Sequence record: PX309103.1
DNA from: a phage
Strand: one strand, 5' to 3'
Length of the DNA stretch: 39,129 bases
Within the stretch, counting starts at the first letter, position 1. The number at the start of each line of letters is the position of its first letter. Shown one piece after another: positions 776-7,162 of this stretch. A model generated the notes under the pieces. The model worked only from the letters and a program-made list of their open reading frames with translations. It did not search any database and was not told where the DNA came from. The position numbers were made by a program, and so were the translations under genes.

Positions 776-1285
776 ATGGAACGTAACGCTAACGCATACT
801 ATGAGCTGCTGGCTGCAACCGTTGAGCTGTTCAATGAGCGTATTCAGTACGACGAAATAGCTGAAGGCGATGACTACAGCGATGCGCTGCATGAGGTCGT
901 AGACGGTCAGGTCCCGCACTATTACCACGAGATTTTCACGGTGATGGCTGCTGATGGCATAGACCACGAGTTTGAGGACTCTGGGCTGATGCCTGAGACC
1001 AAGAACGTAACGCGTATACTACAAGCTCGCATCTATGAGGCACTTTATAACGATGTGTCTAATAGCTCTGAGGTGGTCTGGTTTGAGGCTGAAGAGAGCG
1101 ACGAAGAGGATGAATATTGGGTAGTTGACACTAGAACAGGCGAGATAATTGAGCAAGCTGTATCACTTTACGAGGCTACTGCATGTGCAAAAGAACTCTA
1201 TGAGGAAGGTTTTCACATGCAGGTCGAAGACATCAACGATAACGTAGTGTTCGACCCTGCGGCTGCTGAGGAGGATTGCGAGTGA
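776..1285 (+). CDS. ocr: Ocr-like anti-restriction DNA-mimic protein (T7 gp0.3 family) with C-terminal extension
   Basis: 169 aa, very acidic; the segment VPHYYHEIFTVMAADGIDHEFEDSGLMPETKNVTRILQARIYEAL matches recalled T7 Ocr; GAGGA RBS; first gene after the early promoter region. Confidence 0.85.
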   Translation: MERNANAYYELLAATVELFNERIQYDEIAEGDDYSDALHEVVDGQVPHYYHEIFTVMAADGIDHEFEDSGLMPETKNVTRILQARIYEALYNDVSNSSEVVWFEAEESDEEDEYWVVDTRTGEIIEQAVSLYEATACAKELYEEGFHMQVEDINDNVVFDPAAAEEDCE

Positions 1286-2441: not shown

Positions 2442-2464
2442 ACTTAACTATCACTATAGGACTC
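2442..2464 (+). promoter_or_regulatory. Phage RNAP promoter upstream of gene 1 (TTAACTATCACTATAGGACT)
   Basis: Matches the in-genome consensus TAAACTATCACTATAGG found 11 times. Confidence 0.7.
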
Positions 2465-2533: not shown

Positions 2534-5215
2534 ATGAGCGTCATCTCTATTGACAAACACGACTTCTCTGATGTGTCAAACGCCATTGAGCCGTTTAACC
2601 TGCTGGCTGACCACTACGGGCAAGACCTTGCAGTCAAACAGCTTCAGCTTGAGCATGAGGCATACACTGAAGGCGAGCGACGTTTCATCAAAAACCTTGA
2701 GCGACAGACTGAGCGCGGGGAACTGGCAGACAATCAGGTCGCCAAGCCTTTGATGCAGACTCTGGTCCCTAAGATTGCGCAAGCAGTCAAGGAGTGGCAC
2801 GAAGGTCCAGACGGGAAGCTGTCAACCTCTCGTCCTAGCGTAGCGTTCACCATGTTGAGCACTGAAGAGAAGGCCGTCAAGGACCGCTCTATGCGCATCT
2901 CCTGTGAGTCCGCTGCGGTTATCATACTGAAGGTAATACTCTCCAAGCTGGTCAAGCCCGAAGGGATACCGATTACACCTATGGCCTCCGCGATAGGTCG
3001 CACACTTGAGGACGAAATCCGCTTCGGTCGCATCCGTGACAAAGAGAAAGAGCACTTCAAGAAGGCGATAGCTGATAACCTGAATAAGCGTGCCGGGGCA
3101 TCCTACAAGAAAGCCTACATGCAAGCGGTAGAGGCATCCATGCTGGAGCAAGGCCAACTGGAAGATGCGTGGGGGACTTGGAGTCCTACAGAGGCTGTCC
3201 ACGTTGGCATTAAGATGCTCGAGATTGTCATCCAGTCAACACAACTTGTCGAGCTTAAGCGTTACGGTGCTGGCAATGCAGCGACTGACGTAGAGATGGT
3301 CCACCTGTCAGACTTCTGGGTCAAGAAGATGGCACAACGAGGATTCAGCCTTGCGGGTATCGCTCCTGTCTACCAGCCTTGCGTCGTTCCACCAAAGCCG
3401 TGGACTGGTGTCGTAGGCGGTGGGTATTGGGCCAAAGGTCGAAGACCATTGCCACTGATTCGCTTAGGGTCTAAGTCTGCGGTAGCACGTTACGAAGACG
3501 TGTACATGCCTGAAGTCTATGACGCTGTGAATATCATCCAGAATACACCTTGGAAAGTGAACAAGAAGGTATTGGACGTGGTGAACATGGTCGAGAAGCT
3601 GAACAACACGCCTATTGATGACATCCCTCAGATGGAGCCGCTGAAGCCTGAGGACTATGCTGGTGAGACCGAAGAAGAACTCAAGGCATGGAAGAAGGCT
3701 GCTGCTGGTATCTACCGCCGAGAGAAGGCCCGGCAGTCACGTAGATTGTCACTGAGCTTTATCGTTAACCAAGCGAACAAGTTCTCTCAGTTCAAGGCCA
3801 TCTGGTTTCCGTACAACATGGACTGGCGCGGTCGCGTCTACGCTGTGCCGATGTTCAACCCTCAAGGCAACGACATGCAGAAGGGTCTCCTGACTCTGGC
3901 AGTCGGCAAGCCTATTGGTGCTGACGGTTTCAAATGGCTGAAGGTCCACGGTGCAAACTGCGCGGGTGTCGATAAAGTCACCTTCGAGGAGCGCATCAAG
4001 TGGGTGGAAGACAACCACGAAAACATCATGGCTGCTGCTAAGGCACCGATGGATAGTATTGAGTGGTGGGGCAAGTTAGACTCTCCGTTCTGTTTCCTCG
4101 CGTTCTGCTTCGAGTATGCTGGCGTAATGCACCACGGCCTGTCTTACTCCTGCTCGCTGCCGATAGCGTTCGATGGGTCCTGCTCTGGTATTCAGCACTT
4201 CAGTGCGATGCTTCGTGACCACATCGGTGGACATGCAGTAAACCTGACGCCATCCGGTATGGTACAAGACATCTACCGCATTGTGTCTGACCGCATTGAG
4301 GAGGAGCTTAAAGTCCTGCTGATTAACGGTACTGACAACGAGATGGTCACTCACGAGGACAAGAAAACTGGTGAGATTACCGAACGTATCAAGCTGGGGA
4401 CACGAGAGCTGGCCCGTCAGTGGCTGACCTACGGGATGTCACGTAAGGTCACTAAGCGTTCAGTCATGACTCTGGCATACGGGTCGAAAGAGTACGGCTT
4501 CGCAGACCAAGTTTACGAGGACATCGTGATGCCAGCGATTGACTCAGGGTCTGGCGCTATGTTCACCGAGCCGAGCCAAGCGTCTCGCTTCATGGCTAAG
4601 ATGATTTGGGAAGCTGTGAGTGTGACTGTAGTTGCTGCGGTTGACGCGATGAAGTGGCTTCAAGGTGCTGCCAAGCTGCTGGCTGCTGAGGTGAAGGACA
4701 AGAAGACTGGAGAAATCCTGAAGCCTTGCCTTCCGGTACACTGGGTAACACCTGATGGTTTCCCGGTCTGGCAGGAATACCGCAAGAAGGATACCACTCG
4801 TCTGAACCTGATGTTCTTAGGGTCATTCAACCTTCAGCCTACCGTCAACAGAGGTACGAAGAAAGAGCTGGACAAACACAAGCAGGAGTCAGGAATTAGC
4901 CCGAACTTCGTCCACTCACAAGATGGTAGCCACCTCCGCAAGACTGTAGTCCACACGCACCGCAAGTATGGCGTGATGTCATTCGCAGTGATTCACGATA
5001 GCTTCGGGACCATCCCGGCTGACGCTGAGTATCTGTTCCGTGGCGTCCGTGAGACGATGGTCGAGACCTACCGCGACAACGATGTGCTGCTTGACTTCTA
5101 CGAGCAGTTTGAATACCAGCTTCATGAGAGCCAGCGCGACAAGTTACCTGAGCTACCGAAGAAAGGTAAACTGAATATCGAGGACATCTTGTCTTCAGAC
5201 TTTGCATTCGCTTAA
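2534..5215 (+). CDS. Single-subunit DNA-dependent RNA polymerase (T7 gp1 family)
   Basis: 893 aa; motifs DGSCSGIQHFSAM, HDSFGT and C-terminal ...DFAFA match T7 RNAP. Confidence 0.97.
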   Translation: MSVISIDKHDFSDVSNAIEPFNLLADHYGQDLAVKQLQLEHEAYTEGERRFIKNLERQTERGELADNQVAKPLMQTLVPKIAQAVKEWHEGPDGKLSTSRPSVAFTMLSTEEKAVKDRSMRISCESAAVIILKVILSKLVKPEGIPITPMASAIGRTLEDEIRFGRIRDKEKEHFKKAIADNLNKRAGASYKKAYMQAVEASMLEQGQLEDAWGTWSPTEAVHVGIKMLEIVIQSTQLVELKRYGAGNAATDVEMVHLSDFWVKKMAQRGFSLAGIAPVYQPCVVPPKPWTGVVGGGYWAKGRRPLPLIRLGSKSAVARYEDVYMPEVYDAVNIIQNTPWKVNKKVLDVVNMVEKLNNTPIDDIPQMEPLKPEDYAGETEEELKAWKKAAAGIYRREKARQSRRLSLSFIVNQANKFSQFKAIWFPYNMDWRGRVYAVPMFNPQGNDMQKGLLTLAVGKPIGADGFKWLKVHGANCAGVDKVTFEERIKWVEDNHENIMAAAKAPMDSIEWWGKLDSPFCFLAFCFEYAGVMHHGLSYSCSLPIAFDGSCSGIQHFSAMLRDHIGGHAVNLTPSGMVQDIYRIVSDRIEEELKVLLINGTDNEMVTHEDKKTGEITERIKLGTRELARQWLTYGMSRKVTKRSVMTLAYGSKEYGFADQVYEDIVMPAIDSGSGAMFTEPSQASRFMAKMIWEAVSVTVVAAVDAMKWLQGAAKLLAAEVKDKKTGEILKPCLPVHWVTPDGFPVWQEYRKKDTTRLNLMFLGSFNLQPTVNRGTKKELDKHKQESGISPNFVHSQDGSHLRKTVVHTHRKYGVMSFAVIHDSFGTIPADAEYLFRGVRETMVETYRDNDVLLDFYEQFEYQLHESQRDKLPELPKKGKLNIEDILSSDFAFA

Positions 5216-5227
5216 CAGGAGAGAGTT

Positions 5228-5443
5228 ATGAAATTTGCACACAAGCAGGCTGGCGTTAAGGGCGGGACTCAAATCGTGACCGTAACAGAACACAACGGCA
5301 AGGGTCTGGTGAAGACCACGGTCATTCCTACCGAGATGTCAAAGCAGCTTAACGTCCCATTCAAGACCCTAGTCTGTCTTGTGGAATCTAGCCACGAGAA
5401 ATACCTGAAAGACGCAGTGTCCAAGCTGGAGCAGACCAAATGA
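5228..5443 (+). CDS. Hypothetical protein (71 aa) between RNAP gene and the phi1.1-type promoter
   Basis: ORF with AGGAGA RBS; T7 has no gene at this position as far as I recall. Confidence 0.5.
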   Translation: MKFAHKQAGVKGGTQIVTVTEHNGKGLVKTTVIPTEMSKQLNVPFKTLVCLVESSHEKYLKDAVSKLEQTK

Positions 5444-5516
5444 CAGACTTACAGTTACTGGCCTTGTGGTTGGGAGCACTAGCAGTATTCACTTTAATCC
5501 AACGCAGAAGAGGTTA

Positions 5517-5541
5517 ACCCTAAACTATCACTATAGGATTA
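5517..5541 (+). promoter_or_regulatory. Phage RNAP promoter (phi1.1-like)
   Basis: TAAACTATCACTATAGGATT. Confidence 0.8.
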
Positions 5542-5546
5542 GACTC

Positions 5547-5573
5547 AAGGTCATGACTCAAAGTCGTGGCCTT
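5547..5573 (+). promoter_or_regulatory. Conserved hairpin, RNase III-site-like (R1.1 position)
   Basis: AAGGUCAUGAC / GUCGUGGCCUU 11-bp stem with G-U pairs and UCAAA loop; one of 3 copies of the same element. Confidence 0.6.
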
Positions 5574-5611
5574 CATGATTAACCCTAACTCATTCAATCA
5601 GGAGCTACACC

Positions 5612-5791
5612 ATGTATCAGAACACTATCAACTTCGAGCGCATCCGTGAACGTCAGCAGACTGAAGATTATATTCCGAAGGGACGCAAGCTGAACAAGAC
5701 CAAGCGTGGCGGTGGTGTAAAGGGTGCTTTCCGTAACGCTGAAGGAAAAGACTCTATGGTCAACCAAGAGAAGTATTTCGTAGGAGCATAA
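5612..5791 (+). CDS. gp1.1-like small basic protein (59 aa)
   Basis: Contains KGRKLNKTKR, matching recalled T7 gp1.1; AGGAG RBS. Confidence 0.7.
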   Translation: MYQNTINFERIRERQQTEDYIPKGRKLNKTKRGGGVKGAFRNAEGKDSMVNQEKYFVGA

Positions 5792-5795
5792 CGCT

Positions 5796-6059
5796 ATGGG
5801 CCGACTTTATAGTGGCAACCTAAACGCTTTCAAAGCAGCGTGTAACAGGCTCTATCAGTTAGACTTCGCTGTCATATCTCAGGAGTTTCAAGACCTTACG
5901 TCACGCCAAGAGTGTATGAGACTCAGGGTAGAGGACCGGGCGGGTAACATATTCGCTCTTGAGTCCTTCGCACACTACGATGAAGACGTACTGTACAACA
6001 CTGCAACAGAATTCCTCAATGGTCTCGCTGACCAACTCGACACATGGAGCAAATCATAA
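5796..6059 (+). CDS. gp1.2-like protein (inhibitor of host dGTP triphosphohydrolase family)
   Basis: N-terminus MGRLYSGNLNAFKAA... matches recalled T7 gp1.2. Confidence 0.8.
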   Translation: MGRLYSGNLNAFKAACNRLYQLDFAVISQEFQDLTSRQECMRLRVEDRAGNIFALESFAHYDEDVLYNTATEFLNGLADQLDTWSKS

Positions 6060-7162
6060 TGACAACGACTATCAAAACTAACCCGCACCGCGCTGTAGAT
6101 TACTCTGAGTCTGGCGTTAAGAAAGCACTGGAAGCAGCCGGGTCTCTGGAAGCTGAAGTGAAGTACGATGGTGTGCGCCTGAATCTCCCGGTCTTCCCTA
6201 CTGGTGAGACTCAATGGTTGAGCCGTGAGTCTAAACCTCTCCCAGCGCTTCAGCATCTGAAGTCAGAACATGGTAGTCCTACCGAATTAACAAACTGTGG
6301 AGACTGGCGCTGGTTCCTGAAGCAAGCAGGACATGAGGTCTCTGGCCTAATGATTGATGGCGAGGTGATGGTCAAAGGCGTGGACTTCAACACGTCTTCC
6401 GGTCTTATCCGCACCATGTGGTCTGACCGCAAGAACTACAAGTGGAACATGAACCCTAAGGCAGATATGGAGACCAAGAAGTCTAACAAGGTTCCCTTCC
6501 AGATTAGCCCTGAGTCCCTACGAGTGGTCGTCTACGGGGTCATCGACCTTAACGTCATCAACGACCCAAAAGCCGAAGGTCCTATTCATAGCGTCACACG
6601 CCTGAAGGCCGAAGCTATCGTCCCTCTCCTCCAGAAATACTTCCCGGAAATCGACTGGGTTCTGTCTGAGTCACACACGGTCTATGACCTTGAGTCGCTC
6701 AGCTCCCTGTACGAAGAGAAGCGTCTGGAAGGACACGAGGGTCTGGTAGTCAAGGACCCGCTTGGTAAATACAAGCGTGGCAAGAAGTCTGGCATGTGGA
6801 AAATGAAGCCTGAGGAGACCATAGACGGGACAGTGTGTGGCCTCGTGTGGGGGACTCAGGGTAAGGCGAACGAAGGTAAGGTCATCGGCTTCGAGGTGCT
6901 ACTTGAGGACGGCATGGTGGTTAACACCTGTGGCCTGACTGAAGAACAGAAGGACGAATTCACAGCTAAAGTCGCTGAATCTAGTGGCTATACCTTGGCT
7001 GGTGGCCCTGTGGTTATTCAGGATGGGACCGAGAAGACCAACCCATACGAAGGCTGGCAGTGTGAAGTCCTCTTCATGGAGCGGTTCCCAGATGGCTCAC
7101 TTCGTCACCCTAGCTTCAAGTGCTGGCGTGGAACTGAAGACAATCCGACCATTAAGAGCTAA
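6059..7162 (+). CDS. ATP-dependent DNA ligase (T7 gp1.3 family)
   Basis: Adenylation motif KYDGVR (EVKYDGVRLNL); start placed at ATG 6059 (GGAG 9 nt upstream, TAATG overlap with previous stop) rather than the ORF-track start 6044. Confidence 0.9.
   Translation: MTTTIKTNPHRAVDYSESGVKKALEAAGSLEAEVKYDGVRLNLPVFPTGETQWLSRESKPLPALQHLKSEHGSPTELTNCGDWRWFLKQAGHEVSGLMIDGEVMVKGVDFNTSSGLIRTMWSDRKNYKWNMNPKADMETKKSNKVPFQISPESLRVVVYGVIDLNVINDPKAEGPIHSVTRLKAEAIVPLLQKYFPEIDWVLSESHTVYDLESLSSLYEEKRLEGHEGLVVKDPLGKYKRGKKSGMWKMKPEETIDGTVCGLVWGTQGKANEGKVIGFEVLLEDGMVVNTCGLTEEQKDEFTAKVAESSGYTLAGGPVVIQDGTEKTNPYEGWQCEVLFMERFPDGSLRHPSFKCWRGTEDNPTIKS

Follow-up and report, generated by a model that had tools for sequence, protein, structure and literature searches.

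A conserved pair of small, overlapping genes directly after the RNA polymerase gene of K1F-like phages, one encoding a candidate membrane microprotein

What, if anything, do K1F-like phages encode in the short interval between the RNA polymerase (RNAP) gene, gene 1, and the phage promoter that follows it? The question is raised by the phage sequence PX309103.1, whose whole stretch of 39,129 nucleotides (nt) is called the window here. An initial annotation had placed in this interval an open reading frame (ORF) of 71 amino acids (aa) with a good ribosome-binding site and a hydrophobic ORF of 25 aa, translationally coupled to the first through an ATGA overlap; they are named ORF71 and ORF25 below. 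It took the position to be non-coding in T7 and proposed both ORFs, which end ahead of a phi1.1-type promoter, as candidate accessory genes of unknown function. The ORF list and reading of the sequence agree with this layout (Table 1). T7 has the end of gene 1 at 5822 and phi1.1A at 5848, and the gap of about 25 non-coding bases carries no annotation. The reading favored here, with a probability of about 0.6, is that ORF71 and ORF25 are genuine accessory genes specific to Kayfunavirus, that they form a coupled bicistronic early module, and that ORF25 is a host-acting membrane microprotein.

The window is assigned to Kayfunavirus, the K1F-like phages of the T7 subfamily Studiervirinae, because its megablast matches are phages such as BUCT788 and K1F. 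Positions 4900-5900 matched 226 phage records, with Escherichia phage BUCT788 as the best (98.9%) and K1F at 92.9%, and the identity of the window to K1F-like phages is 93-99%. Conservation among relatives, on which the initial annotation had let its proposal depend, was found for both ORFs: ORF71 occurs in 220 phage records (tblastn), all of the same genus, with identities down to 41%, and the DNA of ORF25 occurs in 222, essentially the same set. For ORF25 a DNA search was used instead of tblastn, in which the 25-aa peptide gave no match against phages, presumably owing to low-complexity masking. That both ORFs are coding is well supported by their comparison across these relatives.

For ORF25, length is a poor guide, as an ATG would open at least 25 sense codons about 30% of the time and such an ORF is not in itself beyond chance; both ORFs are judged beyond chance because they are conserved. 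The region was read in 68 loci, representing 45 distinct sequence contexts, and a 26-codon variant on a further contig of 39,952 bp brings the total to 46. An intact 25-codon ORF is present in all 45 contexts, with 44 ATG starts and one GTG, and with 42 TAA, two TGA, and one TAG stops. The 26-codon variant, found in relative L059, is initiated by GTG, carries an in-frame indel, and reads MTDNQLWLTLWSAFLITFIVFQRRRG. Among the first 27 unique nucleotide versions, the variable columns are distributed as 13, 8, and 19 over codon positions 1, 2, and 3, and the ratio of nonsynonymous to synonymous polymorphism (pN/pS) in the frame of ORF25 is 0.26. The other two frames of the same strand give 1.11 and 0.95, with stops in 27/27 and 6/27 versions, and the three reverse-strand frames give 0.46-1.90, with stops in 24-27 of the 27. 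The metagenomic relative L057, with an ORF71 54% identical to that of the window, has heavily diverged nucleotides in this region and an ORF25 that reads MTQLTLLVIWLAVLAVVIISQRRRG. Arginine codons likewise vary among relatives (CGC, CGA, CGT, AGA), with RRRG retained. Taken together, these comparisons make it very probable that ORF25 is protein-coding.

The peptide is also probably a membrane peptide, judging from its composition. Residues 4-20 have a mean Kyte-Doolittle hydrophobicity of 2.24 in the window and of 1.67-2.38 across 16 peptide variants, with D3 on one side of the hydrophobic stretch and RRR on the other. ORF25 thus has the length, the hydrophobicity, and the flanking charges of a single-pass span. 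The hydrophobic core and the QRRRG tail are conserved, and M1, T2, L4, L7, W10, L11, A15, L19, I20, Q21, R23, and G25 are invariant in the tabulated alleles. On a helical wheel the variable positions gather on one side, with a moment of 0.41, a value that is reached by 532 of 10,000 shuffles. ORF25 has no match in Pfam (E <= 1), NCBIfam (E <= 10), or PHROGs. It is near-invariant in phages of Escherichia, Salmonella, Enterobacter, Citrobacter, Cronobacter, Klebsiella, and Morganella.

The coupling of the two ORFs, as proposed in the initial annotation, is supported by their junction. The stop codon of ORF71, TGA at 5441-5443, overlaps the ATG of ORF25 at 5440-5442. This ATGA is found in nearly all contexts; GTGA takes its place in two (L015/L046 and L059), and L057 has a 3-nt spacer (TAAgcaATG). 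The arrangement, a conserved overlap or near-abutment of stop and start, is retained with differing C-termini of ORF71 (...EQTK, ...AVTK, ...EVEQ, and ...DHQ), and because it is kept whatever the C-terminus, it argues for coupling by termination and reinitiation.

ORF71 is under purifying selection as well, with a pN/pS of 0.36 over 41 unique sequences. It is the orthologue of the K1F protein labeled 'gp1.1' (CAJ29348.1 in AM084414; AAZ72969.1 in DQ111067), with 92% identity over proteins that are both 71 aa long. DQ111067 labels it 'unknown' and BUCT788 'hypothetical protein'. To judge from the sequence comparison, the name gp1.1 is misleading because the homologue of T7 gp1.1 is the next gene but one; ORF71 has no match to the corresponding Pfam family PF08200, which instead matches the separate ORF at 5612-5791. 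ORF71 matches phrog_8082 with E = 3.2e-41, over residues 1-66 of a 66-position profile, and has no match in Pfam (E <= 1), in NCBIfam, or, by sequence, in the Protein Data Bank (PDB). This PHROG has no assigned function, in keeping with the initial annotation. The gene is not new, being annotated in K1F and as hypothetical in more than 200 genomes.

A search of 5.8 billion proteins returned 158 close relatives of ORF71, and an exhaustive HMMER search of 1.84 billion cluster representatives left about six real clusters at 50% identity. The other HMMER matches, giant repeat proteins with 'TVTVT'-like stretches, were judged spurious. In IMG/VR and metagenomes, neither ORF was found beyond Kayfunavirus-type contigs of about 39-40 kb, and searches of the genomes and plasmids of E. 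coli found neither. When IMG/VR was scanned with a loose degenerate pattern, ORF25 was detected in Kayfunavirus contigs only, the other matches being non-hydrophobic and due to chance. Comparison with T7 and with a segment of T3 showed no homology of either ORF. As far as these searches reach, ORF71 is confined to Kayfunavirus. The gene also occurs on 500-770 bp contigs labeled 'Pantoea' (WP_455939281.1), and the records of 'Enterococcus phage EFA-1' and 'Acinetobacter phage vB_Aba_01KA' contain copies of the region with 95-96% identity. These three host labels look doubtful or like contamination.

AlphaFold2, run with a diverse alignment, gave the same fold for ORF71 in five of five models (pLDDT 86.7-92.7). 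The predicted fold has strands at residues 3-10, 13-22, and 25-34, a short helix at 37-41, and a long helix at 45-69, and Foldseek returned no informative structural match to it. Several assignments were tried and rejected. A dsRNA-binding domain (alpha-beta-beta-beta-alpha) gave at best E of about 1-1.7 and TM of 0.3-0.5 in Foldseek, and its N-terminal helix is absent. An AbrB/SpoVT-type swapped-hairpin DNA binder or AbrB/MazE-like antitoxin, suggested by the stretch '...TTVIPTEMSKQL...', found neither Pfam nor barrel-fold support. Two proteins that might have been natural fusions of ORF71 and ORF25 are not: the 97-aa PH1061 protein is merely an N-terminally extended call of ORF71, and the 84-aa P0091 protein enters the ORF25 region in the wrong frame.

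The two genes differ sharply in their divergence. Among the relatives compared, ORF71 identity ranges over 41-100%, more widely than that of the flanking genes set beside it, and there are phages in which it is 41-55% identical to that of the window where the C-terminus of the RNAP is 95-99% and ORF25 92-100% identical. In one such phage the nucleotide alignment ends at 5224 and restarts at 5435, i.e., at the borders of ORF71. The pattern looks like cassette exchange or rapid diversification amid conserved flanks. Such variability would be common among phage proteins that face variable host factors.

The favored reading can be set out as a series of steps. Gene 1, ORF71, and ORF25 would be transcribed early by the host RNAP and later by the phage RNAP, as expected from T7 biology, because the scan of the + strand found no terminator from gene 1 to the promoter that follows ORF25 and because a phage promoter is present at 2446. 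ORF71 would be a small basic soluble protein, with a three-stranded sheet packed on two helices, and its divergence, far above that of the adjoining genes, is as expected for a protein engaging a variable host factor. Ribosomes terminating at the TGA of ORF71 would start again at the ATG that overlaps it and translate ORF25. The peptide, with an acidic N-terminus (MTD), a 17-residue hydrophobic helix from L4 to I20, and a basic C-terminus (QRRRG), would insert into the inner membrane as a single-pass protein with its N-terminus out and its C-terminus in, the orientation given by the positive-inside rule. One face of the helix (L4, L7, W10, L11, L14, A15, and Q21) may bind a conserved inner-membrane component of Enterobacterales; the near-invariance of ORF25 across phages of seven host genera suggests that the target is conserved in that order. 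The binding would serve host takeover or exclusion. We infer from these comparisons the translation, membrane insertion, topology, and expression timing of the two products, as well as any function. Whichever specific role is proposed for ORF25 should be taken as a tentative suggestion with the odds against it. One such suggestion, considered unlikely, is that ORF25 blocks superinfection or a membrane-acting defence by way of an inner-membrane machine of Enterobacterales and that ORF71 is the arm directed at variable host factors, which would make the pair a two-part system absent from T7.

Several observations count against this reading. The one-sided variation of the ORF25 helix is suggestive at most, being marginal with about 5% of shuffles reaching it, and a helix of 17 residues is short for crossing a membrane. 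No consistent co-variation links ORF25 alleles to those of ORF71 or to the insertion downstream, so that the comparison offers nothing in favor of a physical complex of ORF71 and ORF25. In about half of the relatives, the last codons of ORF25 (AGA GGN) also serve as the Shine-Dalgarno (SD) sequence of a gene located downstream, and conservation at the 3' end of ORF25 may in part be at the nucleotide level. Literature searches on the two ORFs turned up no data from ribosome profiling, proteomics, or genetics.

The SD-like codons lead to another explanation, in which ORF25 is a coupling or leader ORF that delivers ribosomes and the sequence AGAGG to a T3 gp1.05-like gene, its peptide being functionless and, in the window, a leftover. 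In 23 of the 45 contexts, and in L059, the ATG of the next gene indeed stands 2-9 nt past the stop of ORF25, every variant ends in AGA GGN though AGA is rare in E. coli, and the downstream gene encodes a protein of Pfam family PF25755 (Phage_T3_1_05). Yet in 22 of the 45 contexts, the window included, the promoter directly follows ORF25, and there the length, start, stop, and hydrophobic sequence are all retained. Selection moreover acts along the whole peptide (pN/pS 0.26), and W10, L4, L7, L11, A15, and QRRRG are invariant even in distant relatives with diverged DNA; a pure leader would need no such conservation of the peptide, which makes this account quite improbable. Less probable still, to the point of being very unlikely, is that the 78 bases are conserved as untranslated DNA or RNA, either as a recombination linker between cassettes or as an upstream element of a promoter or origin. 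The stretch does lie between two positions of gene gain and loss, its nucleotides are nearly identical (protein identity 92-100%) where ORF71 is 41-55% identical and alignments break at the borders of ORF71, and in T7 and T3 the primary origin is near the corresponding promoters. Against it stand the third-position variation, the lack of internal stops in 46 contexts, the interchange of TAA, TGA, and TAG, and the in-frame insertion of a codon. Where relatives carry an inserted gene, the stretch remains next to ORF71 and not next to the promoter. Predicted folding of the RNA from 5425 to 5520 is weaker than that of its shuffled versions (z = +1.84), and the ORF25 region has no Rfam match.

A third possibility accepts the peptide and changes its action: ORF25 might be a toxin-like, membrane-perturbing peptide resembling Ldr, Fst/PepA1, or TisB, causing early depolarization or permeabilization for shut-off or exclusion, with ORF71 as an unrelated neighbor or a modulator. 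ORF25 would match these toxins in size, in having one hydrophobic helix, and in the basic cluster at its C-terminus, and hydrophobicity and the early position adjoining gene 1 are compatible with it. Conversely, ORF25 shows no similarity to families catalogued in Pfam, NCBIfam, or PHROGs, and early depolarization would be risky, as genome entry and growth should need an energized cell. The partly one-sided conservation of the helix is more in line with a specific partner than with bulk damage to the membrane, and this possibility is considered improbable. A type I toxin-antitoxin peptide in the strict sense is not supported: no antisense promoter lies over ORF25, the sole sigma-70-like site on the minus strand within 4900-6100 being at 5833-5804, no antisense RNA gene is apparent, and Rfam gave no match. 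Weighing these accounts, a coupled module with ORF25 as a host-acting membrane microprotein remains the preferred reading.

Table 1. Coordinates of the module and of the surrounding features in the window.
Feature	Position	Strand	Evidence or remark
ocr-like gene	776-1285		Upstream end of the local gene order; followed by a few small early ORFs
Phage-RNAP promoter core	2446-2461	+	Exact match to the 16-nt consensus; left bound of the gene 1-ORF71-ORF25 unit
Gene 1, T7-type single-subunit RNA polymerase, 893 aa	2534-5215	+	ORF list; annotated at the corresponding position of K1F and BUCT788
SD sequence of ORF71, AGGAG	5217-5221	+	6 nt 5' of the ATG; similar GGAG or AGGAGG precede the gene in relatives
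ORF71	5228-5443	+	71 aa, ATG start; ORF list, MKFAHKQAGV...KLEQTK
GGAG, possible SD sequence of ORF25	5428-5431	+	Within the 3' end of ORF71, 8 nt 5' of the ORF25 ATG; not kept in all alleles
ORF25, hydrophobic 25-aa peptide MTDLQLLALWLGALAVFTLIQRRRG	5440-5517	+	ATG start; ORF list, translation
38-aa GTG ORF across promoter and hairpin; not a gene	5466-5582	+	pN/pS 0.95, internal stops in 6/27 variants
phi1.1-type phage-RNAP promoter	5519-5541, core 5523-5538	+	Consensus; begins 2 nt past the ORF25 stop, counting the conserved upstream CCTA
12-bp hairpin at the 5' end of the transcript from the phi1.1-type promoter	5547-5573	+	Position of the T7/T3 R1.1 RNase III site
True T7 gp1.1 homologue, 59 aa; named gp1.15 in K1F	5612-5791	+	Pfam PF08200 (Phage_1_1), E = 1e-10
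gp1.2, dGTPase inhibitor	5796-6059	+	PHROG 2949, E = 3e-36; relatives' annotations; T7 gene order resumes; DNA ligase next

ORF25 has been treated unevenly in sequence records. Twelve GenBank records were opened for its annotation, one of which, of low quality and frame-shifted, falls outside the assessment. Nine of the 12 have no coding sequence for ORF25, and two of these nine carry a 38-codon ORF of another frame across the promoter instead. One record has an N-terminally extended in-frame version, and one, the heavily over-annotated IMM-002, has the exact 78-nt ORF as a 'DUF2842 domain-containing protein'. This label is unsupported, given that no Pfam or NCBIfam family is matched. In an exact look-up among about 15 billion proteins, the ORF25 allele of the window was never called, and the other main allele was called in GA2A and IMM-002 only. 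The annotated orthologues are GA2A gp10 (YP_009324944.1, 'hypothetical protein') and ATI16973.1 / YP_009812842.1 of IMM-002. They occupy the same position as ORF25, are 25 aa long (MTDLKWLALWLAFLAVY[TI]LIQRRRG), and, carrying the other main allele, are about 76-80% identical to the peptide of the window. For phage SH4, the published gene table has no entry in the 78-nt gap. Genes shorter than about 90 nt are skipped by common gene finders, which would explain why ORF25 is seldom annotated. The 38-codon ORF at 5466-5582 is broken wherever a gene is inserted after ORF25, and its equivalent is annotated in place of ORF25 in vB_Eco_1RS and vB_EcoP-22664UKE3-2.

What was already known is that ORF71 is catalogued and that ORF25 was annotated twice, without comment; the standing of ORF25 as a candidate gene in the initial annotation is borne out by its coding signature, and its novelty is qualified by these two entries. 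Literature searches returned nothing on the gene pair. What is new is the genus-wide evidence of protein-level selection on ORF25, together with the finding that the gene is misannotated or missing in most records. K1F-like phages serve in therapy and engineering, and a conserved gene left unannotated between the polymerase gene and the promoter is easily destroyed in genome editing or ignored in annotation. Comparative codon analysis can rescue microproteins that fall under the length limit of gene finders.

Tiny hydrophobic proteins are also encoded by T7 (gp0.5, 47 aa; gp1.4, 51 aa; gp1.5, 29 aa; gp6.3, 37 aa) and T3 (gp1.5, 25 aa). Like ORF25, they are specified by short ORFs of the early or middle region and have one hydrophobic helix, with a best 17-residue Kyte-Doolittle value of 2.1-2.6. 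They differ from it in having other genome positions and no sequence similarity, and in gp1.5 of both phages the hydrophobic helix comes first and is followed by an acidic tail, the opposite of the charge layout of ORF25. Gene 1.5 of T3 (L032, 2415-2492) encodes exactly 25 aa, hydrophobic in character, MWLILFAIVATLGLMVADDNIWPDC. To our knowledge, no function has been assigned to these proteins and the class is uncharacterized, and they may merit joint study with ORF25. Small membrane regulators and type I toxins such as MgtR, SidA, LdrD, and PepA1 are peptides of 20-35 residues with one hydrophobic helix and, in some, a basic C-terminal cluster; they bind membrane proteins or perturb the membrane. 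ORF25 has no detected homology to them, is phage-encoded and coupled to an upstream gene, and has no evident antisense RNA; the resemblance would be a functional one only. Few phage microproteins have a known target, and ORF25 would be added to them if it does act on a host membrane protein. A review (PMC11323111) names T7 gp0.4 and gp4.5 among the phage small proteins whose targets are known.

The slot itself is shared with T3, where gene 1.05 (PF25755) likewise lies between gene 1 and gene 1.1. The T3 gene encodes a different protein, absent from the window, and is located downstream of the promoter phi1.05 and the origin, not upstream. An identification of ORF71 or ORF25 with T3 gp1.05 was rejected, as neither has a Pfam match and in L059 PF25755 is matched by a separate 164-aa gene 3' of the small ORF.

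Downstream of gene 1 lies a hot spot for optional genes, which in the window takes its minimal form, with neither of the two genes described next. A gene of the T3 gp1.05 type (PF25755), about 470 nt long and in several alleles, lies 3' of ORF25 in about half of the relatives. A gene between the ORF25 stop and the promoter is present in L006, L007, L010, L013-L021, L024, L025, L029, L030, and L059. A different gene, of about 240 nt, separates gene 1 from ORF71 in L004, L007, L031, L055, and L059. The gap between the RNAP gene and ORF71 is 12-18 nt in most relatives and about 250 nt if an extra gene intervenes.

In the window, gene 1 ends with TAA at 5213-5215. The 16-nt promoter consensus AACTATCACTATAGGA is present in 12 copies on the + strand of the whole window, against 0.35 expected. 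The copy that follows ORF25, the phi1.1-type promoter of the initial annotation, would start transcription at G5536 by analogy with T7 promoters. The ORF25 region has no sigma-70 site on the + strand. The hairpin at 5547-5573 has a predicted folding energy of -20 kcal/mol (z = -2.8), and none of 200 shuffles is as stable; R1.1 of T3 is annotated at the equivalent place.

At the other end of the unit, the promoter copy at 2446-2461 lies about 70 nt 5' of gene 1 and is followed by a hairpin-like sequence ('ctcaaggtct...'). The phage RNAP would transcribe its own gene from this promoter. In T7, the E. coli promoter C is annotated at the corresponding place, and no phage promoter. A similar element upstream of gene 1 is present in the relative L022. 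From the ocr-like gene to gene 1 (776-2533), there are only small ORFs of 43-108 aa with PHROGs of unknown function, and the ORF list has none as large as the T7 gp0.7 protein kinase. Downstream, many relatives with identities above 90% in the flanking genes have a gp1.2 that is only 22-32% identical or undetectable, which suggests that it is a second exchanged cassette.

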